Positions 12,081 to 48,645 of a stretch of DNA of 64,000 bases are shown piece after piece (position 1 is the first letter of the stretch; every line of letters starts with the position of its first letter). Made by a program: the position numbers and the translations under genes. This stretch comes from Ruminococcaceae bacterium UBA1730 (GTDB lineage: Bacteria > Bacillota > Clostridia > Oscillospirales > Acutalibacteraceae): assembly GCA_002315935.1 (NCBI GenBank), contig DCII01000017.1, positions 10,999 to 74,998 of the forward strand, given 5' to 3'. The notes below the pieces were generated by a model that did not search any database, was not told where the DNA came from, and saw only the letters and a list, made by a program, of their open reading frames with translations.

Positions 12081-13097
12081 TCAGGCAAAGCATTCAGCAA
12101 TTTTGGCAGTTCCTTTGATTATAAACTTATCGGCGGCACTGAACGGAACAAAGAAATAATCGCCTTTTTTGATTTCTCTTTCATAGCCGTCTCCGACTAT
12201 TTTTGCTTCTCCGTCAAGAACAACATAAATCGCAACACCCTTGGAAAGTCTGAATTCGCCGTTATTGAGAGTTATAGTTCTTACATTGAAGCTCTCGGTA
12301 ATGTTTTTGCCGATAATTGATTCATAAATAAATCCTTCCGCTTTTTCGATAACCTCAGGTTTAAGCGGAGCGGGATACCTCTTGCCTATATCAAAGCATT
12401 CAAGAGCATTTTTTCTTGAAAGCCCGATATACATTTCGTTATCGGAAAGCCTGTAATTTCCGCAAAATCTTTCGGGCTGAATTGTGAAATCAGTCGGTTC
12501 CTGAACCTCAAGAAGAAGGCAACCATATCCGATTGCATGAACCATCTTTGCCGGAATATAAATTACATCGCCGACCTTGACATCAATTGAGCTGAGAAGC
12601 TCCTCCATTGCATTTGAGCCATTGTCGCTTTCGTCAATTGCTTTTTCAAAATCTTCAAGAGTTACTCCGTCTTTAAAGCCATAATAAATCTTTGCTCCGG
12701 GACGAGTTGCAAGAATAATCCAGCTTTCTTCCTTTCCGTATTTCGAATTGAAATATTTTGCTGAAAAGGCTTTATCCGGATGAGCCTGAACGGGAAGACG
12801 GATTGCAGAATCGAGAATCTTTGTCAGAATTCCGATGTCCTGCCGGTCACCGAGCATTTCCTTCTTATATTCATTTATGGCATTATTCAGATAAATATCC
12901 GTTCCTTCGATTTTTGAAATTCCTTCATATTCATCAGTGCTTCCCTCGTTGAGAGCATGAACTGTTGAAACAACCCATTCCTCGGGGAAGAATCCATCCT
13001 CGGAATCATCGCCGAAAAATTCGGAAAAAAGCTTTCCACCGGTATAAACTCTTGCAACACGGTTTTTTTCAAAAAATATCGGTCTGTCATAAAACAT
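12081..13097 (-). CDS. Class I mannose-6-phosphate isomerase-like cupin
   Basis: LTKILDSAIRLPVQAHPD, KEESW, VHAIG, LEVQEP metal-ligand motifs. Confidence 0.8.
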   Translation of the reverse strand: MFYDRPIFFEKNRVARVYTGGKLFSEFFGDDSEDGFFPEEWVVSTVHALNEGSTDEYEGISKIEGTDIYLNNAINEYKKEMLGDRQDIGILTKILDSAIRLPVQAHPDKAFSAKYFNSKYGKEESWIILATRPGAKIYYGFKDGVTLEDFEKAIDESDNGSNAMEELLSSIDVKVGDVIYIPAKMVHAIGYGCLLLEVQEPTDFTIQPERFCGNYRLSDNEMYIGLSRKNALECFDIGKRYPAPLKPEVIEKAEGFIYESIIGKNITESFNVRTITLNNGEFRLSKGVAIYVVLDGEAKIVGDGYEREIKKGDYFFVPFSAADKFIIKGTAKIAECFA

Positions 13098-13099
13098 TT

Positions 13100-14392
13100 T
13101 TAGTCACCTCTGTATTTTATAATCGAACAGGCTTCGTCAATGGAACCGAATTCGCCTACAGCAACCGCAGCGGAAAGAGCTGCACCGAATGCGGCTTCCT
13201 CCTCGTAGCAGGGAAGCTTGATTTCAGCCTTGAACATATTTTCAACTATTCTGCAAAGAACGGGATTTTTTCTTATTCCGTTGCCTGAGCAGACAACTGC
13301 ATTCTTCGTGACGCCGGAAGCTTTATAAAATCCGAAAAGCTCATCGGCAATGCCTTCGAGAGTTGCAAATGCAAATTCCGCAACATTGAAATTATTTTCG
13401 GTTATTCCGAAATATCCGCCTTTAACAGCAGGGTCTTTTCTTGTTCCGCAAAATCTGCAATCAGCCTTTATTTCCGATTCGGATTTATTTTCAAGAATCT
13501 TATCGAGAACGGGATAGAAATTATCAATATCAGCTCCCGAAAGAGAAGCGATTTCTTTACAGAATTTTTCAAACATTGCGAAGGCTCTTCCGCCGCAGAG
13601 CGAACAGCCTGCACAAAGAAATCTCTTACCGTCAAACGGTCTTAATTCAACTCCCTCAATCTCGGCAAAATCATCAATCAGAAATGAAATCTGCGAACCG
13701 GTTCCGACATTGACAAGAGCATAGTCGGCACATCTGACTGAGCCGATAAAGCTTGCCTGATTATCGCCGAGAGCAACGGCAACGGGAACGCCTCTGTATT
13801 CGCCTGCAACCTTAAACTCTGTTGTAACTTCGGGAAGACGAGCATTATCAATTCTGAATTTATTGTTCTTAACATCAAAAGCTCCGAGACTTGCGGCGTT
13901 TGTTATATGAACAACGGGAGTATCAAGCTCGCAAAGACGCATAACAATCCAATCGGCAATTGTGCAGAGAAATGCTGCATCCTCGGGAATAAGTCCGTTT
14001 GCTTCGTTATACAGGTCGGTGGCAAGTCCGTAACCCGGAAAACATCCGAGATATTCAGCAAAGGTTTTTCCGTCTTTGTATTCCTTTGCACCTCTCTGGT
14101 CCTGCCAGATATAAAGCGGACTCAACGCCTTGCCTGTTTCATTTGTATACAGAATTCCGTGCATCTGACCGGAAAATCCTATTGCAGAAACATCTTCATC
14201 AAAAAGCTCATCAATTATGCCGAAAACAATATCGAATATTGAATCGGCATCCTGAATTCTTTCAAATTCATTATCGGAGGAAATGAAGGAAGCGTTTTTT
14301 CGGGTTAAGCTTCTGAGCATTTCTCCGCTTTCGGTATCGGTTATAACTCCGCATATGCCGGTAGTTCCGATGTCTATTCCTAAAATTTTCAA
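13100..14392 (-). CDS. FGGY-family carbohydrate kinase, sedoheptulokinase-like
   Basis: LGIDIGTT, GFSGQMHG, YIWQDQRG, TNAASLG, LGDNQAS, NVGTGSQIS, CGGRAF, SGNGIRKN. Confidence 0.85.
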   Translation of the reverse strand: MKILGIDIGTTGICGVITDTESGEMLRSLTRKNASFISSDNEFERIQDADSIFDIVFGIIDELFDEDVSAIGFSGQMHGILYTNETGKALSPLYIWQDQRGAKEYKDGKTFAEYLGCFPGYGLATDLYNEANGLIPEDAAFLCTIADWIVMRLCELDTPVVHITNAASLGAFDVKNNKFRIDNARLPEVTTEFKVAGEYRGVPVAVALGDNQASFIGSVRCADYALVNVGTGSQISFLIDDFAEIEGVELRPFDGKRFLCAGCSLCGGRAFAMFEKFCKEIASLSGADIDNFYPVLDKILENKSESEIKADCRFCGTRKDPAVKGGYFGITENNFNVAEFAFATLEGIADELFGFYKASGVTKNAVVCSGNGIRKNPVLCRIVENMFKAEIKLPCYEEEAAFGAALSAAVAVGEFGSIDEACSIIKYRGD

Positions 14393-14404
14393 TTCATTAC
14401 CTCT

Positions 14405-16729
14405 TTAGCAGAATGTTGTTGAAGCCGGGTCAAGTCTTGTGATTATATCCTGCTGAATTGCAGGAGAAAGGTCAAGGAAATTAACGAATGTGCCGTGAAT
14501 TCTCATAATGTAAACTCCGCTCGGAGCATATTTCTTTGGATTTGCAAGAACCTTTCGAAGAATTTCTGCTGTTGTGACATTGACATAAAGATAGAAGGGA
14601 GAAACGCCTTCCTTGAGCGGATTGAAGAAGAGAGGAGCAATAACCTTATCCCTGAATTCAACGCCCTTTTCCTCATAGGATTCACCTCTGAAATATTTCG
14701 GGTCAATGCCGAGATGCGAAGCATAACCGCCGTTGAACTTTTCAAACGGCATTTTCATATTCGAAAGCATACGGAATCCGAGACCGTTTTCTGCACTTCC
14801 GTAAAGCGGGTCAACACCGTAGCCGAGCATATCTCTTGATTTTCTGCCGTCGGGAGTTGCACCGACCCAGTAGCCGTAGAGAAGATGGGTTGAGGGCGAG
14901 CTGAAATCGGGTCTGAAGGGATTTCCGAGATAATTCTTTTGCGAAGCAACTATATCGGAAACCTTTGAAGCAATTTCCCCTGCTTCATTATCAACCTTTT
15001 CGATATTGTTGCCGAACTTATCGGCAGAAAGAAGGAATGCACGAAGGTCCTCATAGCCTTTGAAATCAGCCTTGAGAGCATCAACAAGCTTATCTGCATC
15101 CTCAGGTCTTTCGGAAAGAAGCTTATCAATTGCGGAGAATGAATCTGCAATAACCGAAACGCCGTGGATAAGACAACCGCTTCCGTTATATTTTGTTCCC
15201 TGCTTATGAATATCTCTTGCATCAATGCCGTTCTCAAGGCATCCCATTATGCAGGAAAGGAAGGGAACTCTCTGGGTTGAAAGAGCTTCGGAAGCACCGT
15301 TTGCACATTTGCACATTGCTTCAACAAACTTTTCAACATTCTTATAGAATACTTCTCTGATATTTTCAAGACTTGCCTTTTCACACTCAACAAGCTTTTC
15401 GCCTGTGATAGTGGAAACACCGCCCGTTAAAGTCATTTCAAGAATCTTGGGAAGATTCAGCCAACTATTGGTTGTGTTGCCTGTATCCTTGCCCATAATA
15501 AGAGGCTCCTGACATCCTGCAATTGAAATATCGGCAAGGTCTTCCTTGTCAACTCCCTTTGAACCGAGAACCTCGAAAAGAGAATCATCATTGAAGAATG
15601 AGGGAGTAAGCACTCCGGGGCTGAAAAGAAATCTGCCCATTTCCTCATATAACTTTGCAGGGGTATTCTTATGAAGCTTAACGGAAAGAATAGGCTGAGG
15701 AAGATTCATGTCATAATAGGCATCCATGAGAGCATAGGTTGAAGGATTGGTTAAATCGTTGCCGTCAGCATCTCTGCCGCTGATTATGATATTCTGCGAA
15801 ATTGCCCAGCTTCTGTCCGCAACATTGAAATAAACAAGAAAATGCTTGAAATATGCGGCTTCGGTTTCTCTGTCCATTCCGTTTCTGTACGGTTCAAAAA
15901 TTCTGTCAGCATTGCCGACTGAAAAAGCAAAGGGATTCGGAGTCTGTTCAAGGCACATAACCTGCCAGAGAAGCTGGAATGCCTGAATAGCTTCCTCAAG
16001 ATTTTCGCATCCGTTTTCGGGAACCTTACGGAGATTCTTAACCATCTGCTCAAGCTGAAGCTTTCTTTCTGCCGAAGCTGTTTTCATCTGTTCTTCGGCA
16101 ATATCGGCATATCTGTTTGCAAGAATAATTACGCTGTCGAGAACAATTCTGAATGCTTCGAAGCCCTTGCCTTCCTTTCCTTCGATTTTTGAAATCATAT
16201 TTTTAACGCCGTATTTGATTGCATATCTCATATCGGGAATGAGATGACCCGTTACCTGCTCGAAGAAGAAAATAACCTCTTTTGTGTAGCATTCGGCAGG
16301 ACCGTATACCTTGCCGAGCTTTGTTGCATATTCGGATTTGCCGAATTCCGCTCTCGCACTGTCAATTCTTTCCTGCGTGAATTCTTCGTTTGCATCAATG
16401 TCGCCGAAAACAGCCGTTGGGTCGCAATAACCGCTGAATTCTTCAACCTTGAAGGTGGGATTTATAAGTGCATAGCTTCTTGCAAAGCCGTCATCCTGCG
16501 TACCTGCAAAAAGCTGATAATCGCTGATTGAAAGAGGAATTGTTCTGATTATTTCTCTCAAAATGAGAGCTTTTTTAACCTCTTCATTTTCGTTTGCGTA
16601 TGTTTTTTCAAGCTCAAGCTCTTTTTCTTTCGCAATGAACCATCCGTCAAGCCTGTTGCCTGCTCTCTTTTCTTTGAAAAGTGCCTTTGCCATTTCGGTA
16701 ATCTTCGATGCGTTAAGTAACTTATCCAT
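14405..16729 (-). CDS. Glycyl radical enzyme (PFL superfamily) of unknown reaction
   Basis: 774 aa; Cys loop SIAGCQEP (Cys codon 15512-15514); C-terminal Gly loop MRIHGTF (Gly codon 14492-14494); VGATPDGR, FGNN and QQDIITR motifs; adjacent activase. Confidence 0.88.
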   Translation of the reverse strand: MDKLLNASKITEMAKALFKEKRAGNRLDGWFIAKEKELELEKTYANENEEVKKALILREIIRTIPLSISDYQLFAGTQDDGFARSYALINPTFKVEEFSGYCDPTAVFGDIDANEEFTQERIDSARAEFGKSEYATKLGKVYGPAECYTKEVIFFFEQVTGHLIPDMRYAIKYGVKNMISKIEGKEGKGFEAFRIVLDSVIILANRYADIAEEQMKTASAERKLQLEQMVKNLRKVPENGCENLEEAIQAFQLLWQVMCLEQTPNPFAFSVGNADRIFEPYRNGMDRETEAAYFKHFLVYFNVADRSWAISQNIIISGRDADGNDLTNPSTYALMDAYYDMNLPQPILSVKLHKNTPAKLYEEMGRFLFSPGVLTPSFFNDDSLFEVLGSKGVDKEDLADISIAGCQEPLIMGKDTGNTTNSWLNLPKILEMTLTGGVSTITGEKLVECEKASLENIREVFYKNVEKFVEAMCKCANGASEALSTQRVPFLSCIMGCLENGIDARDIHKQGTKYNGSGCLIHGVSVIADSFSAIDKLLSERPEDADKLVDALKADFKGYEDLRAFLLSADKFGNNIEKVDNEAGEIASKVSDIVASQKNYLGNPFRPDFSSPSTHLLYGYWVGATPDGRKSRDMLGYGVDPLYGSAENGLGFRMLSNMKMPFEKFNGGYASHLGIDPKYFRGESYEEKGVEFRDKVIAPLFFNPLKEGVSPFYLYVNVTTAEILRKVLANPKKYAPSGVYIMRIHGTFVNFLDLSPAIQQDIITRLDPASTTFC

Positions 16730-16741
16730 TTCGTTCTCTCC

Positions 16742-17446
16742 TTATGAAGTAACGGTTTTAAAGCCGTAATTTCTGAATACTTCGGTAAACTCTCTGATTT
16801 TTTCAGGCGAAACAAACCCGTTTTCAATCTGATATTTACCCTTCCATTTATCTTTTCCGAATTCATGATAAGCAAGAAATTCAAAATCAGCGTTTGAACA
16901 ATCAAACCTTGAAAAAAACTCCGCAAATCCTTGAGGATTATCGTTAATTCCGTTGATAACGGGAATTCTGATATGAATTTCTCTGCCCGAATTCAGAAAA
17001 TATGCAATGTTCTTCTTTGTAATTTCGTTTGGGGAGCCGGTCCATTTTATGTGAATTTCTCCATCATAATGCTTCAAATCAATAATCAGAAAATCAACAT
17101 ATTGTGAAATCTCGGGAAGCTTTTCGGATGAACCGTTTGTTTCAATGCAGGTGTTTATTGAATTTTCTTTAAGCTTCTTCAGAAGAATAATAAGCTCGTT
17201 CGACTGTAGGGTACATTCGCCGCCGGTAAAGGTCACTCCCCCTCCGTCAAAAAACATCATCCTGCTTCGCATTATCTCATTAAACAGTTCATCAACCGAA
17301 TATTCCTTTGCTTTTGAATTCTGCTTTGGAATAGAATCTGCATTTGAACACCATTTGCAGGCAAAATTACAGCCCTGAAGATGATAAACAAGCCTGTTGC
17401 CGGGACCATCCTGCGAATAATTGAAGCCTTTCTGAAGAATCAACAA
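16742..17446 (-). CDS. Glycyl-radical enzyme activating enzyme (radical SAM)
   Basis: DGPG motif, GCNFACKWC (CxxxCxxC), GVTFTGGE, IETNG; no ferredoxin insert; TTG start. Confidence 0.92.
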   Translation of the reverse strand: MLILQKGFNYSQDGPGNRLVYHLQGCNFACKWCSNADSIPKQNSKAKEYSVDELFNEIMRSRMMFFDGGGVTFTGGECTLQSNELIILLKKLKENSINTCIETNGSSEKLPEISQYVDFLIIDLKHYDGEIHIKWTGSPNEITKKNIAYFLNSGREIHIRIPVINGINDNPQGFAEFFSRFDCSNADFEFLAYHEFGKDKWKGKYQIENGFVSPEKIREFTEVFRNYGFKTVTS

Positions 17447-21063: not shown

Positions 21064-21165
21064 TTCCCGATAATCTCCCCTTTCTTAATATAATTATAGT
21101 CACTATTATGTATTTGATTACAAAAAATTAAAATATAAAGCCGCATCATACGACACGGCTTGAAA

Positions 21166-22071
21166 TTATAAACAATCAATATATCTGCAAGCGGCAAGAG
21201 CTGAAACGGAGCCGTCTGCACAGGCGGTAGTAATCTGCCTTATCGACTTGCTTCTGCAATCGCCGGCAACAAATACTCCGGGAGTTTTCGTTATGCAGGA
21301 TTCATCGGAGTCGATGTAACCCCATTCATTAAGACCTGCAATTTCTTCAAAGGCTTTGTTATTCGGAACAAGTCCGATTGCAACAAAAAGTCCGTCAACA
21401 GTAAGCTCCGAAACAGCTCCGTCTGAATTCTGAAGCTTAAGACCCTTAAGCGAATCATCTCCGATAAGCTCGGTAATAACCGTGCTGACGACAAACTCTA
21501 CATTATCCTTTGCTTGGAGCTTTTCAACAAGCTTTGCTTCGCCGGTCATATAGTCAAGATTCTGAATAACATAGACCTTTTTGCTTGTATCCGAAAGAAG
21601 AACAGCTTCCTGCAAAGCAGAGTTTCCGCCCCCGAGAACGGCAACGATCTGATTTTTGAAAAATGCACCGTCACAAACTGCACAATATGAAATGCCGTTT
21701 CCGACAAGCTCATTTTCCTTCGGCAAACCAATCTGCCTGTGTTTAACGCCGGTTGCAATGATAACTGCTTTTCCTTCATATTCGCCGTCTTCGGTAACAA
21801 CTGTTTTGGTTGCACCGTTGTCTCGGATTGAAATAACGGTTTCCATTTCAATATCCGCACCCTGAGAAAGAACCTGGTCAACAAGCTTATCGGCAAATTC
21901 GATGCCGCTCATTTCGATGAATCCGGGATAATTCTCAATCTGCGGAGAATAAGTTATCTGACCGCCGAATGTGCCTTTTTCAAGCACAAGAACGGATTTA
22001 TCGGCTCTCAGAGCATAGAGTGCCGCAGTCAGACCTGCGGGACCCGCTCCGATAATAATTATATCGTACAT
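21166..22071 (-). CDS. trxB: Thioredoxin reductase
   Basis: GAGPAG, GISYCAVCDG (CxxC), GGGNSA, AGD, RQITTA. Confidence 0.93.
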   Translation of the reverse strand: MYDIIIIGAGPAGLTAALYALRADKSVLVLEKGTFGGQITYSPQIENYPGFIEMSGIEFADKLVDQVLSQGADIEMETVISIRDNGATKTVVTEDGEYEGKAVIIATGVKHRQIGLPKENELVGNGISYCAVCDGAFFKNQIVAVLGGGNSALQEAVLLSDTSKKVYVIQNLDYMTGEAKLVEKLQAKDNVEFVVSTVITELIGDDSLKGLKLQNSDGAVSELTVDGLFVAIGLVPNNKAFEEIAGLNEWGYIDSDESCITKTPGVFVAGDCRSKSIRQITTACADGSVSALAACRYIDCL

Positions 22072-22075
22072 AAAA

Positions 22076-24439
22076 TCAGCCTTCGATGAATTTGATTATT
22101 TCAGAAACACCTGCATATTTTTTGACTTCTTCTCCCTTGATTTCAACAAGAGTAGGAGCCTGTCTTACGCCGAGAGCAATTGCAAGGTCTTCGTTCTCAT
22201 AAGCAAGAACTTCATTGACAACTATTCCCGCTTTATTGAGCTTTGCAAGAGCAATTTTGCAGTTGGGGCAGGTTGCAGTCTTGAAAAGATAAAGACCGTC
22301 AGCAAGCTGAACGCTTGAGTCTGCGTGGTCATCAGCTCCGCAGCAGCAGTTATGCTCATGAGCCTCAAACCTTGAACCTGCGATATTATAAACCTTGCGG
22401 TCTTTATATTCCTGAGTTTTGCCGTCATTCCAGTTCTGAACAGGACGATAATAGCCTGTGATACGGCTGTAAACCTCAGCAGGTTCGCCGCATTCGGGGC
22501 ACTTGAACCGTTCACCGGCAAAATAACCGTGATTCTTGCATACGGAATAAGTCGGCGAAAGAGTATAATAAGGAAGTTTATAATTTCTTGCAATCTTTCT
22601 TACAAGCTCTGCGGCTGCCTTCCAATCGGGAAGCTTTTCGCCGAGAAATGCGTGGAAAACAGTTCCGGAAGTATAGAGAGTCTGAAGCTCATCCTGAACA
22701 TCAAGAGCCTCAAAAATATCTTCCGTGTAACCAACAGGAAGATGAGAACTGTTGGTATAATAAGGAGTTTCGCCTGAAGCGGTAACAATATCGGGATACC
22801 TCTTGAGGTCATGCTTGGCGAGACGATAAGAAGTTGATTCCGCAGGAGTAGCTTCAAGGTTATAGAGATCGCCGTATTCCTCCTGATAATCGGAAAGGCG
22901 TTCACGCATATGATTAAGAACATCCTTTGCAAATTCCTGGGTTTTCTTATCTGTCATATCAGCTTTGAGCCATTTTGCGTTAAGACCGACCTCATTCATG
23001 CCGACAAGACCGATAGTAGAGAAATGATTGTTAAATGTGCCGAGATAACGCTTTGTGTAGGGATAAAGACCTTCATCAAGAAGCTTTGTGATGATTGTTC
23101 TCTTTATCTTGAGAGAACGTGCGGCAATATCCATCATCTTATCAAGGCGGGCATAGAATTCTTTTTCATCAGCCGCAAGATAAGCAATTCTGGGAAGATT
23201 GATTGTAACAACGCCGACTGAGCCTGTTGATTCACCGCTTCCGAAGAAACCGCCGCTCTTTTTGCGAAGCTCACGAAGGTCAAGACGAAGACGGCAGCAC
23301 ATTGAACGGACATCGCTCGGCTCCATATCGCTGTTGACATAGTTTGAAAAATAAGGAGTTCCGTATTTTGAAGTCATTTCAAACAGAAGCTTGTTGTTTT
23401 CCGTTTCGCTCCAGTCGAAATCGCTTGTGATTGAATAAGTCGGAATGGGATACTGGAAGCCTCTGCCGTTGGCATCACCTTCAATCATAATCTCGATGAA
23501 GGCTTTGTTGACCATATCCATTTCTTTCTTACAGTCTTTATACTTGAAATCCGCCTCTTTGCCGCCGATGATGCAGTTCTGCTCTGCAAGGTCGGCAGGA
23601 ACAGTCCAGTCAAGGGTGATGTTTGAGAACGGAGCCTGAGTACCCCAACGGCTGGGAGTATTTACGCCGTAAATGAATGATTCAATGCACTTCTTGGTTG
23701 CGTCATAGGAGAGATTATCAACCTTAACGAAGGGAGCAAGATATGTATCAAAGGATGAGAATGCCTGAGCACCTGCCCATTCATTCTGCATGATTCCGAG
23801 GAAGTTAACCATCTGATTGCAGAGAGTTGCAAGATGCTTTGCAGGAGCAGATGTGATTTTACCCGACACTCCGCCGAGACCCTCCTGAATAAGCTGCTTA
23901 AGAGACCAACCTGCACAATAACCGGTGAGCATGGAAAGATCATGAAGGTGAATATCGGCGTTTCTGTGAGCATTTGCAATTTCATCATCATATATTTCTG
24001 AAAGCCAATAATTAGCGGTTATTGCACCGGAGTTCGAAAGAATAAGACCGCCAACCGAATATGTAACGGTAGAATTCTCTTTGACACGCCAGTCTGTAAC
24101 ATTAACATAGCTGTTAACGAGGTCCTTATAGTCAAGAATTGTTGACTTAAGGTTACGGAGCTTTTCTCTTTGTCTTCTGTAAAGAATATAGCACTTGGCA
24201 ACATCGGCATAGCCTGCCTGAATAAGAACGTGCTCAACGCTGTCCTGAATATCCTCAACTGCAATAAGTGAATTTTCGATTTTCGGCTCAAAATCGGCAG
24301 TTACCTTGAGAGCGAGGAAATCAATAGTTGAATCAACATACTGCTTTTCCTGAGCTTCAAAAGCCTTTCTTATAGCCTCTGCAATTTTTGCTACATTGAA
24401 GTCCGCTACGCTACCGTCTCTTTTTACAACCTGATACAT
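22076..24439 (-). CDS. nrdD: Class III (anaerobic) ribonucleoside-triphosphate reductase with N-terminal ATP-cone and C-terminal glutaredoxin-like domain
   Basis: ATP-cone (VVKRDGSVADFNVAKI), RSMCCRL finger loop, EATPAES, Zn ribbon CKNH..CPEC, YSRITGYYRP Gly loop, then TATCPNC...APTL redoxin domain. Confidence 0.95.
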   Translation of the reverse strand: MYQVVKRDGSVADFNVAKIAEAIRKAFEAQEKQYVDSTIDFLALKVTADFEPKIENSLIAVEDIQDSVEHVLIQAGYADVAKCYILYRRQREKLRNLKSTILDYKDLVNSYVNVTDWRVKENSTVTYSVGGLILSNSGAITANYWLSEIYDDEIANAHRNADIHLHDLSMLTGYCAGWSLKQLIQEGLGGVSGKITSAPAKHLATLCNQMVNFLGIMQNEWAGAQAFSSFDTYLAPFVKVDNLSYDATKKCIESFIYGVNTPSRWGTQAPFSNITLDWTVPADLAEQNCIIGGKEADFKYKDCKKEMDMVNKAFIEIMIEGDANGRGFQYPIPTYSITSDFDWSETENNKLLFEMTSKYGTPYFSNYVNSDMEPSDVRSMCCRLRLDLRELRKKSGGFFGSGESTGSVGVVTINLPRIAYLAADEKEFYARLDKMMDIAARSLKIKRTIITKLLDEGLYPYTKRYLGTFNNHFSTIGLVGMNEVGLNAKWLKADMTDKKTQEFAKDVLNHMRERLSDYQEEYGDLYNLEATPAESTSYRLAKHDLKRYPDIVTASGETPYYTNSSHLPVGYTEDIFEALDVQDELQTLYTSGTVFHAFLGEKLPDWKAAAELVRKIARNYKLPYYTLSPTYSVCKNHGYFAGERFKCPECGEPAEVYSRITGYYRPVQNWNDGKTQEYKDRKVYNIAGSRFEAHEHNCCCGADDHADSSVQLADGLYLFKTATCPNCKIALAKLNKAGIVVNEVLAYENEDLAIALGVRQAPTLVEIKGEEVKKYAGVSEIIKFIEG

Positions 24440-24535
24440 AATTACTCAATCTTTCCTTTCTGAATCAGCCAAACGGCTGATGATGCTCAACGAATATGAT
24501 ATTATCACACTTAATTATAGCTTGTCAATAGGTTT

Positions 24536-24551
24536 ATACAATATATTGTGT
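24536..24551 (-). promoter_or_regulatory. NrdR box upstream of nrdD
   Basis: Minus strand acacaatatattgtat matches the NrdR consensus acaCwAtATaTwGtgt at 15/16. Confidence 0.7.
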
Positions 24552-24598: not shown

Positions 24599-25291
24599 TC
24601 ATATTCCACGAAGCTCGCATTCATCAACATACTGAAGCATTATCTCTCTGAAACGAAGCATTTTTTCCTTTGTGACGGCAGTCAGACCGAAGCCGATAAG
24701 CTCTCCGGAATCCTTGAACGCCTGGATATAATGTCTTTTTGCACCTTTAATCCATCTTCCAAGCTCCTGAATGCTTTCATCATCATGGAATTCATTCACA
24801 ACAGTTGTCCGAAATTCATAATCAACATGATTTTCAAGGAGAAAACGGATGCTCTCGTCAACCTTTGAAGTATCGTATCCGCCGATTCCGACAGCAGGAG
24901 GATAATTCTTTTTTGACGCCTTGACATCCATTGCAACATAGTCAACAAGACCTGCACCGACTATTCTCTTCAGTTTATCGGGAAAAGTACCGTTGGTATC
25001 AAGCTTGATTTTATAACCTTTATCTCTGACCTTCTGAATGAATTCAAAAATATCGGGCTGCATCAGCGGCTCGCCGCCCGTAAACGCAACGCCTTCAAGA
25101 ATACCGATTCTTTTATCAAGAAATGAAAGAATTTCTTCTTCTGAATATTCGGTTTCTTTCGGAGGATGAATAACCAATCTCGAATTATGGCAGAACGGAC
25201 AGCGAAGGTCACAGCCGGCAGTGAACAAGGTGCAAGCCATCTTGCCCGGAAAATCAAGCAGAGTAAGCTTCTGAAGCCCCTGAATATTCAA
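24599..25291 (-). CDS. nrdG: Anaerobic RNR activating protein (radical SAM)
   Basis: GCDLRCPFCHN, GVAFTGGEP, KLDTNG, YEFRTTV; next to nrdD. Confidence 0.92.
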   Translation of the reverse strand: MNIQGLQKLTLLDFPGKMACTLFTAGCDLRCPFCHNSRLVIHPPKETEYSEEEILSFLDKRIGILEGVAFTGGEPLMQPDIFEFIQKVRDKGYKIKLDTNGTFPDKLKRIVGAGLVDYVAMDVKASKKNYPPAVGIGGYDTSKVDESIRFLLENHVDYEFRTTVVNEFHDDESIQELGRWIKGAKRHYIQAFKDSGELIGFGLTAVTKEKMLRFREIMLQYVDECELRGI

Positions 25292-25330
25292 AATATCACT
25301 TCTTTCATTTTAATGTGCACGGAAATAATA

Positions 25331-25389
25331 ACACAATATATAGTGCTTGTCAACAAGAAATAAGGCTTTTATTACACAATATTTTGCAA
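25331..25389. promoter_or_regulatory. Two NrdR boxes overlapping the nrdG sigma-A promoter
   Basis: acacaatatatagtgc (25331-25346, 15/16) lies in the spacer of minus-strand TTGACA-17-TATTAT; a weaker acacaatattttgcaa is at 25374-25389. Confidence 0.7.
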
Positions 25390-25464: not shown

Positions 25465-25890
25465 TTATAACCGTTCCTTAGTATTCAATATCTTTTTTCC
25501 AAAACTTAAAGGAAGAATTTCGGAAAGTTTATATTCTCTGAATTCATTTTGATTTTTGGCAATTATAACAATAAAATCCTCGTTGCAGAATTCATTCATA
25601 ACCTGCCTGCAAACTCCGCACGGAGTGCAGAATTCGGAAGGTTCCGAATCGCCTTTTCCACCGACAATAACAATTCTGTCAAATTCTTTTTCGCCCTCTG
25701 AAACAGCTTTGAAAAATGCAGTTCTTTCGGCACAGCAGGTCGGTGAAAAAGAAGCGTTTTCAATATTACAGCCCGTGAAAGCCCTGCCGTTTTTGCAGAG
25801 CAATGCCGCTCCGACCTTAAAGCCCGAATACGGCGAATATGAATTCTTCCTTGCTTCAAGAGCAAGCTCAATCAATTCTTTGTTTTCCAT
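25465..25890 (-). CDS. cdd: Cytidine deaminase
   Basis: YSPYSGFKVGAA, GCNIENAS, CAERTA, PCGVCRQ; start MENKEL at 25890. Confidence 0.96.
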   Translation of the reverse strand: MENKELIELALEARKNSYSPYSGFKVGAALLCKNGRAFTGCNIENASFSPTCCAERTAFFKAVSEGEKEFDRIVIVGGKGDSEPSEFCTPCGVCRQVMNEFCNEDFIVIIAKNQNEFREYKLSEILPLSFGKKILNTKERL

Positions 25891-25891
25891 A

Positions 25892-26566
25892 TCAATAACC
25901 CGAAGCTTCCTGATTCTTAACAAGCTTAACAATGGAGCTTGTGCCGAGTCTTTCGCAGCCGAGAGCAAGAAAATCCTCCGCATCCTGCATTGAGCGAATT
26001 CCGCCTGCGGCTTTCATTTTTACATTCTCTCCGATATTTTCCGAAAAGAGCATTATATCTTCTCTTGTTGCACCTGCTTTTGAAAAGCCAGTTGAGGTTT
26101 TGATAAAATCAGCTCCCGATTCGGTTACTACTCTGCACATCTCCTTCTTTTCCTCTTCGGAAAGAAGACAGGTTTCTATAATAACCTTAAGAAGCTTTCC
26201 TTTGCAGGCTTTTTTAACTTCTTTTATTTCATTCAGAATATCGTCAAATCTGCCTTCCTTCGCCCAACCGACATTGATAACCATATCAATCTCGTCTGCT
26301 CCGTTTTCAACAGCATCGGAAGCTTCAAAAGCTTTGACGGCGGTTGTTGAATATCCGTTCGGGAAGCCGATAACGGTGCATATTGCAAGCTTATCGCCGA
26401 CATATTCCTTTGCCCATTTAACATAAGAAGCCGGAATGCAGACACTTGCCGTTTTATATTTCATTCCGTCATCACAAATCTGTTTAATCTGTTCGGTTGT
26501 TGCATCAACTGCAAGAAGAGTATGGTCGCAATGCGAAAGAATTTCAGAAATATTCATATATATCAC
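25892..26566 (-). CDS. deoC: Deoxyribose-phosphate aldolase
   Basis: [44 protein letters not shown]. Confidence 0.97.
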
Positions 26567-47409: not shown

Positions 47410-47526
47410 TAAATCACATCAATTCAACTTTAATATAATGATTATATCACACTAAAAATTATTATCAATCTTGTTTTGGAAAAATCTTTATGATATAATG
47501 TTAAAAAATTCAAGGAGCGGATAAAA

Positions 47527-48645
47527 ATGTCTGAATACGATATAGCGGCAATAATCTGGCCCTCTTACACGGGTGATGAAATAAGAAGCAGAATTTTCTG
47601 GCCGGAGGGATACGGCGAATGGGAATCAGTTAAAAGAATGACAAACAAAGGCTATGAGGGTTGCAGATGGCCGAGAAAACCTTTGTGGGGTTATGTCAAC
47701 GAAGCAGACCCCGATGTTATGGAGATGCAGATAAATGCGGCAATCCGTCACGGTGTAAATACATTTATATATGACTGGTATTGGTTTGACAACAGACCCT
47801 TCCTCGAAAACTGCCTTAATGACGGTTTTCTCAAAGCACCTAACAACACTAAAATGAAATTCTATCTTATGTGGGCAAACCATGATGCAACTCACCTTTG
47901 GGATATAAGAAATTCACATCTTGATAATGTTATCTGGAAGGGTTCCGTAACAGAAAAGATTTTTGATGAAATCTGCGACAGAACAATCGAAAAATATTTC
48001 AGCAAAAAAAATTATTATTGCATTGACGGATGCCCTGTTTACATGATTTTTGACCTTCAGAATTTTGTCGAAAGCTTTAATTCAGTTGAAAAATGCAGAG
48101 AAGGAGTCAAGCGTTTCAGAGAAAAAACAATCAAAGCAGGCTTCAAGGGTCTTAATTTCCAGCTTGCATATTTCAGCGACTATAAATCAAGATTTAAAAA
48201 AGAAGGTTCTGATGAATATTATTCCATGAAGGAGCTGATGGAAGCGGTTGGATTTGACAGCTTCACAAACTATAACTGGGCGTGCGTCAACATAAATGTT
48301 GACACAGATTACGAAGAAGTAACCGATTCATACATGAAAAGATGTGAAGAATTCAGCAAATTTTCATCGGATTTCTACCCCAACATAACCATAGGATGGG
48401 ATAACAACATCCGTTTCAAGGAATTCATTAAGGGAGTTATGAAGAATAACACTCCCGAAAACTTTGAAAAAGCCTGCATAAAAATCAAGGAATATACAGA
48501 TAAAGCTCTGCAAGACGGCAAAATGAAGGCTCCTCTCATAACGATAAACAGCTGGAACGAATGGACTGAAACAAGCTATCTTGAGCCTGATGATTTATAC
48601 GGCTACGGCTATCTTGACGCAATAAAAAGAGTATTCGGCGAATAA
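47527..48645 (+). CDS. GH99-like (WbsX-type) glycoside hydrolase domain protein
   Basis: PLWGY, FIYDWYW, LMWANHD, IGWDNN, INSWNEWTETSYLEPD; no signal peptide. Confidence 0.8.
   Translation: MSEYDIAAIIWPSYTGDEIRSRIFWPEGYGEWESVKRMTNKGYEGCRWPRKPLWGYVNEADPDVMEMQINAAIRHGVNTFIYDWYWFDNRPFLENCLNDGFLKAPNNTKMKFYLMWANHDATHLWDIRNSHLDNVIWKGSVTEKIFDEICDRTIEKYFSKKNYYCIDGCPVYMIFDLQNFVESFNSVEKCREGVKRFREKTIKAGFKGLNFQLAYFSDYKSRFKKEGSDEYYSMKELMEAVGFDSFTNYNWACVNINVDTDYEEVTDSYMKRCEEFSKFSSDFYPNITIGWDNNIRFKEFIKGVMKNNTPENFEKACIKIKEYTDKALQDGKMKAPLITINSWNEWTETSYLEPDDLYGYGYLDAIKRVFGE

Follow-up and report, generated by a model that had tools for sequence, protein, structure and literature searches.

A class III ribonucleotide reductase with a fused, putative thioredoxin-fold redoxin and an adjoining trxB gene in gut Clostridia

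In a 64,000-nucleotide stretch of the genome of Ruminococcaceae bacterium UBA1730 (contig DCII01000017.1, positions 10,999 to 74,998; hereafter the window), the genes nrdG, nrdD and trxB form a cluster on the minus strand. The class III ribonucleotide reductase (RNR) encoded by nrdD continues beyond its glycyl-radical domain into a disordered linker and a small, predicted redoxin domain with a CPNC site, and trxB, which encodes a flavoprotein of the thioredoxin reductase (TrxR) type, follows immediately. Comparison across genomes indicates that this NrdD::redoxin fusion is real and common in gut anaerobes, that it is under selection and genomically coupled to trxB, and that it marks a whole clade; a redox function of the fused domain is plausible. 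On balance, we think that the cluster probably provides the organism's only RNR together with a tethered chain of reductants. The elements on which this proposal rests are the following:

22076..24439, minus strand: nrdD, class III ribonucleoside-triphosphate reductase fused to a putative redoxin (787 aa)
22079..22300, minus strand: predicted minimal thioredoxin-fold domain, aa 714-787 (74 aa), containing CPNC (aa 724-727; 22259-22270) and the cis-Pro motif APT (22151-22159)
22301..22384, minus strand: disordered linker, aa 686-713 (about 28 residues), with Cys698-Cys699-Cys700 at 22340-22348
21166..22071, minus strand: trxB, low-Mr thioredoxin-reductase-type flavoprotein (301 aa)

The fused gene and its distribution

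The nrdD stop codon (22076-22078) is followed after 4 nt by the ATG of trxB (22069-22071), and a Shine-Dalgarno-like sequence for trxB, GAAGG, lies within the 3' end of nrdD. A preliminary description of this DNA had pointed to an SMCCRL motif, a glutamate within EATPAES, a C-terminal CPNC domain and a trxB gene 4 nt downstream, all of which are present. It had placed the redoxin domain at about 22076-22300; the domain was retained and its limits were refined to 22079-22300.

A search with the tail region revealed 3553 protein clusters at 90% identity, many of them from human-gut 'Clostridium sp.' assemblies and one found on 561 contigs. Among 300 species genomes sampled evenly from the class to which the organism belongs, representing 178 genera, the tail was detected in 52 genomes from 37 genera, nearly always closing an open frame 785-870 residues long. 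When species-representative genomes were scanned with P0173, one of the short redoxins of the protein library, a relative of the tail domain turned up in at least 476 of them. The best 80 of these loci, from Acutalibacteraceae, Oscillospiraceae, Lachnospiraceae, Ruminococcus, Faecalibacterium, Christensenellaceae, Erysipelotrichaceae and Dysosmobacter, comprised 79 NrdD fusions and one locus cut by a contig end. Given this predominance of fusions, the short 'stand-alone' redoxins in the library may be gene fragments, and we do not claim a free-standing family.

Redoxin fusions are better known from class I and II RNRs, as the preliminary description had remarked. Rozman Grinberg et al. (2018; PMC6187632), whose survey used Pfam cut-offs, list a single 'Glutaredoxin:NrdD' from Lachnospiraceae bacterium TWA4, assigned to subclass NrdDd, and beyond this entry no mention of an NrdD-redoxin fusion was found in the literature searched. 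As the tail described here stays under the Pfam glutaredoxin cut-off, the method of that survey would miss the fusion in the window.

A search of the 300-genome sample with the whole NrdD revealed two groups. Proteins of clade A share at least 66% identity with the window NrdD, are covered to its last residue and are encoded with nrdG upstream and trxB downstream. Proteins of clade B share 46-54% identity, are covered to about residue 687 only and derive from frames of about 700 residues; at the eight clade B loci examined, nrdG lies downstream, and neither trxB nor a small redoxin gene was found within 3 kb. The active-site finger loop of clade B reads SMCCRL and its Glu motif NLEATPAE (four of the eight loci, those where the NrdD frame was recovered). 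Since both motifs are common to these unfused enzymes, the active-site signature alone does not predict the fusion.

The gene trxB directly follows the fused nrdD at 24 of 29 loci, and at 65 of 76 loci with enough downstream sequence, in agreement with the coupling of both genes that had been proposed initially. In one clade A member, G110 (L071, G110:C14; 74% identical), NrdD ends right after the glycyl-radical domain and is followed by a terminator; both the tail and a nearby trxB are missing. Fused nrdD genes with no trxB within 1.3 kb downstream were observed at loci L081, L090, L094, L098, L130, L138, L139 and L144, the hosts being Butyrivibrio, Frisingicoccus, Blautia, other Lachnospiraceae and Clostridium sp. 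chh4-2. The reductase of these loci is therefore either encoded elsewhere or a different enzyme.

Relatives of the tail were also noticed in other settings. The unannotated genome of the uncultured gut phage MT835493.1 from human faeces encodes one at 47428-47769 (39.5% identity over 98% of the query). In protein P0136 (255 aa) of the 50% representative library, the first two thirds of a TrxB of the QNL type lead directly into a CPNC redoxin, which reflects either a real deletion or fusion, or a chimeric assembly. The partial protein P0128 (309 aa) contains two copies of the CPNC redoxin with proline- and alanine-rich repeated linkers between them, including a repeated 'DACDGTRILGTAKAEP' unit.

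Catalytic core, redoxin tail and flavoprotein

The window NrdD scored 1137 bits with NF006126 (cut-off 548) and, over aa 121-684, 639.5 bits with the Pfam model NRDD (PF13597; cut-off 26.2). The NRDD domain, the glycyl-radical motif, Zn-ribbon ligands and a cognate NrdG are all present, as expected for a class III enzyme. The following sites were located:

24164..24433, minus strand: ATP-cone, aa 3-92 (PF03477, 75.6 bits)
23915..23917, minus strand: Cys175, beta-A active-site cysteine, aligned with C125 of Thermotoga maritima NrdD and invariant in the homologue alignment
23288..23305, minus strand: finger loop SMCCRL, aa 379-384 (Met380, Cys381, Cys382), aligned with SCCR 328-331 of T. maritima
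22853..22855, minus strand: Glu529, candidate active-site base, aligned with E495 of T. maritima, in the conserved LEATPAEST
22490..22540, minus strand: putative Zn-ribbon ligands C634, H637, C647 and C650, invariant columns whose role is taken from the class III Zn site in the literature
22448..22465, minus strand: glycyl-radical motif RITGYY (Gly662), invariant among relatives

Alignment with T. maritima NrdD (PDB 4COI, E 4.5e-40) placed C175, C381/C382 and E529 on C125, C329/C330 and E495, among them residues of the SCCR loop whose numbering in T. maritima was given by Burnim et al. (2022). The beta-A cysteine, the vicinal cysteine pair of the finger loop and the glutamate of the thioredoxin-dependent subtype (NrdD2) are thus in place, which upholds the active-site type suggested in the preliminary description. 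In the enzyme of Neisseria bacilliformis, the glutamate of this subtype is E438. That description gave 23294-23299 for SMCCRL; the motif is real, and these positions cover its CC pair only. EATPAES corresponds to aa 529-535 (22835-22855). SMCCRL was invariant in 29 of 29 fused homologues. A finger loop free of the methionine of formate chemistry, such as the SCCR of the two studied NrdD2 enzymes, was not found, as the window loop reads MCCR. According to Burnim et al. (2022), 83% of double-Cys class III enzymes are of the MCCR kind and keep the parts for formate as well as for thioredoxin.

A Pfam scan of the whole NrdD made no call over the last 100 residues. The tail alone reached 18.3 bits with Thioredoxin (PF00085; cut-off 23.5) and 18.1 bits with Glutaredoxin (PF00462; cut-off 22.9). 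CPNC and the cis-Pro motif APT were invariant in 30 of 30 and in 80 of 80 homologous tails from different genera. An AlphaFold model of the domain alone (66 sequences) showed an overall predicted local distance difference test score (pLDDT) of 86.5, with block means of 92-98 in the folded part. The predicted topology is beta-alpha-beta-alpha-beta-beta-alpha, with four strands and three helices, where CPNC starts helix 1 and Ala-Pro-Thr stands just before strand 3. The 50 PDB matches listed by Foldseek were all thioredoxin-fold proteins, each with a probability of 1.00, mostly thioredoxins and a-type domains of protein disulphide isomerase (PDI), plus fold-switched KaiB; they include the 89-residue Trx1 of Thermosipho africanus (6MOS). 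The model identifies the tail as a thioredoxin-fold redoxin and, as the N-terminal strand-helix unit of full thioredoxins is missing, as a minimal fold of the NrdH/Cp9/MJ0307 size class. NrdH- and Cp9-type redoxins are reduced by TrxR-type flavoproteins, and the tail redoxin is probably reduced by an enzyme of this type as well.

By sequence, the best PDB match of the tail was the NrdH-redoxin of C. ammoniagenes (1R7H), at a marginal E of 0.02. The NCBIfam models nearest to the tail relatives were YruB and NrdH, with every score far under cut-off; the NrdH model TIGR02194 was not among the matches of the tail itself, and relatives reached about 26 bits (cut-off 85.75). Of the NrdH hallmarks, neither the C(V/M/I)QC site nor an nrdHIEF operon is present, the genome having no class I RNR. 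The WCGPC site of thioredoxins is absent, and the model has no N-terminal beta1-alpha1 unit. Compared with glutaredoxins, CPNC stands in place of CP(Y/F/W)C, and PF00462 remains under its gathering cut-off; short library relatives exceed that cut-off (up to 39 bits) and may be gene fragments. GshA (PF04262) gave no match in the 96%-complete genome (other routes to glutathione were not searched). With this score, an active site that is not CPYC, and structural matches mostly to thioredoxins and PDI, 'glutaredoxin', the name first given to the tail, is a loose label that we have given up.

The linker between the glycyl-radical domain and the tail is conserved neither in sequence nor in length (30-162 residues), and a full-length AlphaFold model, built on a shallow alignment of 24 sequences at 72-93% identity, showed a pLDDT <50 over residues 662-709. 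Of 30 linkers in a first set, 15 contain a C-x0-2-C cluster (CC, CxC, CCC or CCCC), as do 26 of 68 in a second set, the rest having one cysteine or none. The cluster is clearly enriched, not universal; it may act as a redox shuttle or bind a metal.

TrxB scored 328.2 bits with TIGR01292 (cut-off 343.45), and its best PDB matches were all TrxRs (E 4e-72). It contains the FAD motif GAGPAG, the redox site CAVC (21673-21684) and the pyrophosphate motif GGGNSA (21616-21633). At the position of HRRxxxR, which in NADPH-dependent enzymes meets the 2'-phosphate of NADPH, it reads QNLDYMT (21544-21564), and the TrxR of Thermosipho africanus (7JYP) has QNLPYLT there. HRR was found in 3 of 25 and in 1 of 65 TrxBs adjoining a fused nrdD; QNL(D)x(L)TGE is present in the majority, and GDANTA...TLFDKF in four. 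Loss of HRR has been described as a marker of TrxBs that do not depend on NADPH (PMC10880999, PMC5627308), and the T. maritima enzyme, which lacks HRR, prefers NADH (Yang and Ma 2010, as cited in PMC5627308). With HRRxxxR missing and GGGNSA kept, the donor of TrxB is more likely NADH or another compound than NADPH: the motifs favour NADH first, leave room for another donor, and support NADPH, named in the preliminary description, least. A literature search on the donor specificity of Thermosipho TrxR and Cp34 gave nothing usable.

Two assignments to the ferredoxin-dependent FFTR family were rejected. The window TrxB matched the clostridial FFTR structure 6GNA with an E of 5e-37, compared with 4e-72 for NTR-like TrxRs, and it has kept GGGNSA. 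In the four TrxBs mentioned above, at loci L034-L037 (G113, G300, G009 and G168), GDANTA replaces GxGxxA and TLFDKFFGD replaces HRRxxxR, and at two of these loci the trxB start and the nrdD stop share 4 nt; the similarity of these TrxBs to FFTR structures does not exceed that to ordinary TrxRs.

Gene cluster and genome context

The order of genes on the minus strand is deoC (25892-26566), cdd (25465-25983), a terminator-like hairpin, nrdG, nrdD, trxB, a second hairpin and a separate amidase gene. nrdG lies 160 nt upstream of nrdD. The remaining features of the cluster are:

24599..25291, minus strand: nrdG, radical-SAM activase of NrdD (230 aa), with CxxxCxxC at 25190-25213; TIGR02495 NrdG2, 210.7 bits (cut-off 131); Pfam Radical_SAM
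25325..25353, minus strand: TG-extended, sigma-70-like promoter of nrdG (TTGACA-17-TATTAT); an NrdR-box-like site (25331-25346) lies within it
24501..24551, minus strand: TG-extended promoter of nrdD-trxB, TTGACA (24523-24528) and GATAAT spaced by 16 nt; an NrdR-box-like site (24536-24551) immediately precedes the -35 element
21138..21161, minus strand: intrinsic-terminator-like hairpin closing the nrdD-trxB unit, 10-bp stem with T-rich tail, 5 nt past the trxB stop

The 16-bp consensus of the NrdR box, which we take to be ACACWATATATWGTGT, is matched by each of the two sites with one mismatch. With up to three mismatches allowed, these were the only two sites in 64 kb, both at promoters of the nrdG/nrdD cluster, and the genome has a gene for NrdR (215 bits). 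According to the literature, NrdR boxes come in pairs, 15-16 bp apart; no partner was found at this distance from either strong box (best candidate, 7 mismatches), so that control of nrdD-trxB by NrdR is only suggested. Elsewhere in the window (12081-17446), an operon of four genes encodes a sugar kinase, a glycyl-radical enzyme of the PFL2/3 type (774 aa) with its activase, and one further protein; the glycyl-radical enzyme is not a pyruvate formate-lyase (PFL).

The genome (2.13 Mb, 96% complete) contains one NrdD, one TrxB-like gene and one free thioredoxin. Neither a class I or II RNR nor a second NrdD was found in it, and NrdD is the only source of DNA precursors in this bacterium; a class III RNR is probably the only such source in many strict gut anaerobes. 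The sole free thioredoxin passes TIGR01068, has an unusual CSPC site instead of WCGPC and is encoded about 10 kb before the window (contig C10, locus L007, 443-763). As this TrxB-like gene and this free thioredoxin are the only ones present, TrxB cannot be reserved for the RNR, and the system is not 'self-contained' as had been supposed. A true PFL is absent from the genome: the best TIGR01255 score was 90 bits (cut-off 994), and both other glycyl-radical enzymes are of the PFL2/3 type. This absence favours a thiol route in this organism.

Electron path, alternatives and related systems

From the architecture, the predicted fold, the conservation of redox motif and gene order, and the missing NADPH motif, we infer the following electron path and donor. 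NrdG would install the glycyl radical on Gly662. Nucleotide reduction would then oxidise Cys175 and either Cys381 or Cys382 to a disulfide, with Glu529 as the base, as has been proposed for class III enzymes that depend on thioredoxin. The CPNC domain, held on its disordered linker, would re-reduce this disulfide, either directly or through the CCC of the linker, and the translationally coupled TrxB would recharge the CPNC domain with electrons from NADH or another donor rather than NADPH.

Several observations weigh against this path. The finger loop is MCCR and not SCCR, and Met380 has been linked to a possible use of formate (Burnim et al. 2022). SMCCRL and NLEATPAE occur likewise in the unfused sister clade, whose operons encode no redoxin, and the fused NrdDs of Lachnospiraceae mostly lack a downstream trxB. 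The genome's sole TrxB-like gene must serve the free thioredoxin too. The full-length AlphaFold model is poor (pLDDT 63; predicted template modelling score, pTM, 0.50) and uninformative on domain docking. Furthermore, PFL scored over its cut-off in 33 of 52 genomes with the tail and in 145 of 249 without it, a count among related genomes and not a statistical test. The argument used for NrdD2, that genomes of the fused clade lack PFL, was rejected on these numbers. As PFL is not depleted in the clade and Met380 is kept, the formate independence asserted in the preliminary description is unproven and stays a hypothesis.

A more elaborate form of the proposed path, which we regard as possible though unlikely, is that the fused redoxin and the linker cysteines play the part in a class III enzyme that the swinging cysteine tail at the C-terminus plays in class I and II RNRs. 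A non-NADPH TrxB, linked to NADH or ferredoxin, would charge CPNC, and the linker cysteines would carry the electrons into the barrel. Both designs would share a flexible, cysteine-bearing extension that relays electrons from an external redoxin to a buried disulfide, and the window linker does contain CCC; however, the cysteine cluster occurs in 38-50% of fused NrdDs only, and its redox role is putative.

The tethered redoxin might instead serve in maintenance or activation. It would hold the cysteines of the C-terminal part, close to the glycyl-radical domain, in the reduced state, allowing NrdG to install or renew the radical, and formate, wherever the cell has it, would still be the reductant. 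Thioredoxin is reported to activate the formate-dependent class III RNR of E. coli (Padovani et al. 2001, as summarised in PMC4390871), and the tail is attached immediately after the region that contains the glycyl radical and the Zn ribbon. The retention of Met380 in MCCR and the true PFL of 63% of fused-clade genomes fit such a role as well. On the other hand, the UBA1730 genome depends on a single RNR and has no PFL, the vicinal cysteine pair and Glu529 match the thiol-dependent type, and a stoichiometric, covalent carrier with a co-transcribed reductase would seem excessive for occasional repair. We consider a maintenance role doubtful, though worth keeping in mind.

An enzyme that works in two modes appears rather improbable. 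Metabolic supply would decide whether such an enzyme draws on formate, by way of Met380 and Cys175, or on the tethered redoxin, by way of Cys175 and Cys381/382. The share of double-Cys enzymes that keep the methionine, and with it the parts for both routes (Burnim et al. 2022), agrees with this, as does the occurrence of PFL in many, not all, fused-clade genomes. However, no class III enzyme was shown to use both routes in the literature searched, and PFL is missing from this genome.

An incidental fusion, in which a housekeeping redoxin was joined to NrdD with no special role in nucleotide reduction and TrxB acts as general reductase, is very unlikely. It would account for TrxB being the sole TrxB-like protein, on which the free thioredoxin must also depend, but not for a fusion and gene order kept across many families, an invariant CPNC, the joint absence of tail and trxB in G110, or a unit with its own promoter and NrdR-box-like site. 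The chance that an assembly or frameshift artefact joined two genes is practically nil and already refuted by comparative data, as the same uninterrupted frame recurs in the 3553 protein clusters, in 52 of the 300 sampled genomes and in 79 of 80 further loci of named species.

Among known systems, the enzyme of the proposed tethered path would, by analogy, work most like the thioredoxin-dependent class III RNRs. Wei et al. (2014) described the NrdD2 of Neisseria bacilliformis with TrxA, TrxB and NADPH, as far as the work is rendered in PMC9669993, PMC4390871 and PMC5627308. The window enzyme shares with NrdD2 (N. bacilliformis; T. maritima, PDB 4COI and 4U3E) the glycyl-radical core, the Cys/Cys/Glu set and, as the proposed reductant, a thiol redoxin with a TrxR-type flavoprotein, although the similarity in sequence to T. 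maritima NrdD is distant only. It differs in the covalent redoxin after the glycyl-radical domain, the operonic trxB, MCCR instead of SCCR and a TrxB without the NADPH motif. The Facklamia ignava NrdB and other glutaredoxin-RNR fusions (PMC6187632) likewise join a small redoxin of the thioredoxin superfamily to an RNR component, and for F. ignava a role as RNR reductant was shown. In F. ignava, however, the redoxin is N-terminal, glutathione-dependent and attached to the radical-generating subunit of a class I enzyme, whereas in the window it is C-terminal, attached to the catalytic subunit of a class III enzyme and paired with a TrxR-type partner.

The free redoxins of the NrdH and Cp9/YruB types were described in PMC3720550 as thioredoxin-fold proteins of 75-85 residues with glutaredoxin-like sequence and thioredoxin-like function. 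The same text reports the cp34-cp9-cp20 operon of C. pasteurianum, in which cp9 adjoins the TrxR-like cp34, and BC3987 of B. cereus, and states that NrdH serves RNR. The window redoxin differs from them in CPNC, which replaces C(V/M/I)QC or CP(Y/W)C, in being fused instead of free, and in its association with a class III instead of a class Ib RNR. The Thermotogae resemble the window in a TrxR with Q-N-L-x-Y at the place of H-R-R-D-x, in a short thioredoxin-fold partner (6MOS) and in the presence of a double-Cys, Glu-type NrdD in the same organisms. Their TrxR and redoxin (the NADH-preferring T. maritima TR with a glutaredoxin-like protein; Thermosipho africanus TrxR, 7JYP) are, however, separate proteins encoded outside the nrdD operon, and the cofactor preference of the window TrxB is a prediction.

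For RNR-redoxin fusions in general, the distribution found here indicates that surveys based on Pfam thresholds undercount them, one reported NrdD case standing against hundreds of species. For the large 'MCCR plus Glu' group of class III enzymes, the literature names formate and thioredoxin as candidate reductants. A clade with an attached reductant and a co-transcribed recharging enzyme offers a clean experimental handle on thiol turnover, on donor specificity and on the route of electrons into the active site. If the more elaborate relay through the linker cysteines is true, a large part of the gut Clostridia would make its deoxynucleotides independently of formate, by a relay not described for any glycyl-radical enzyme.

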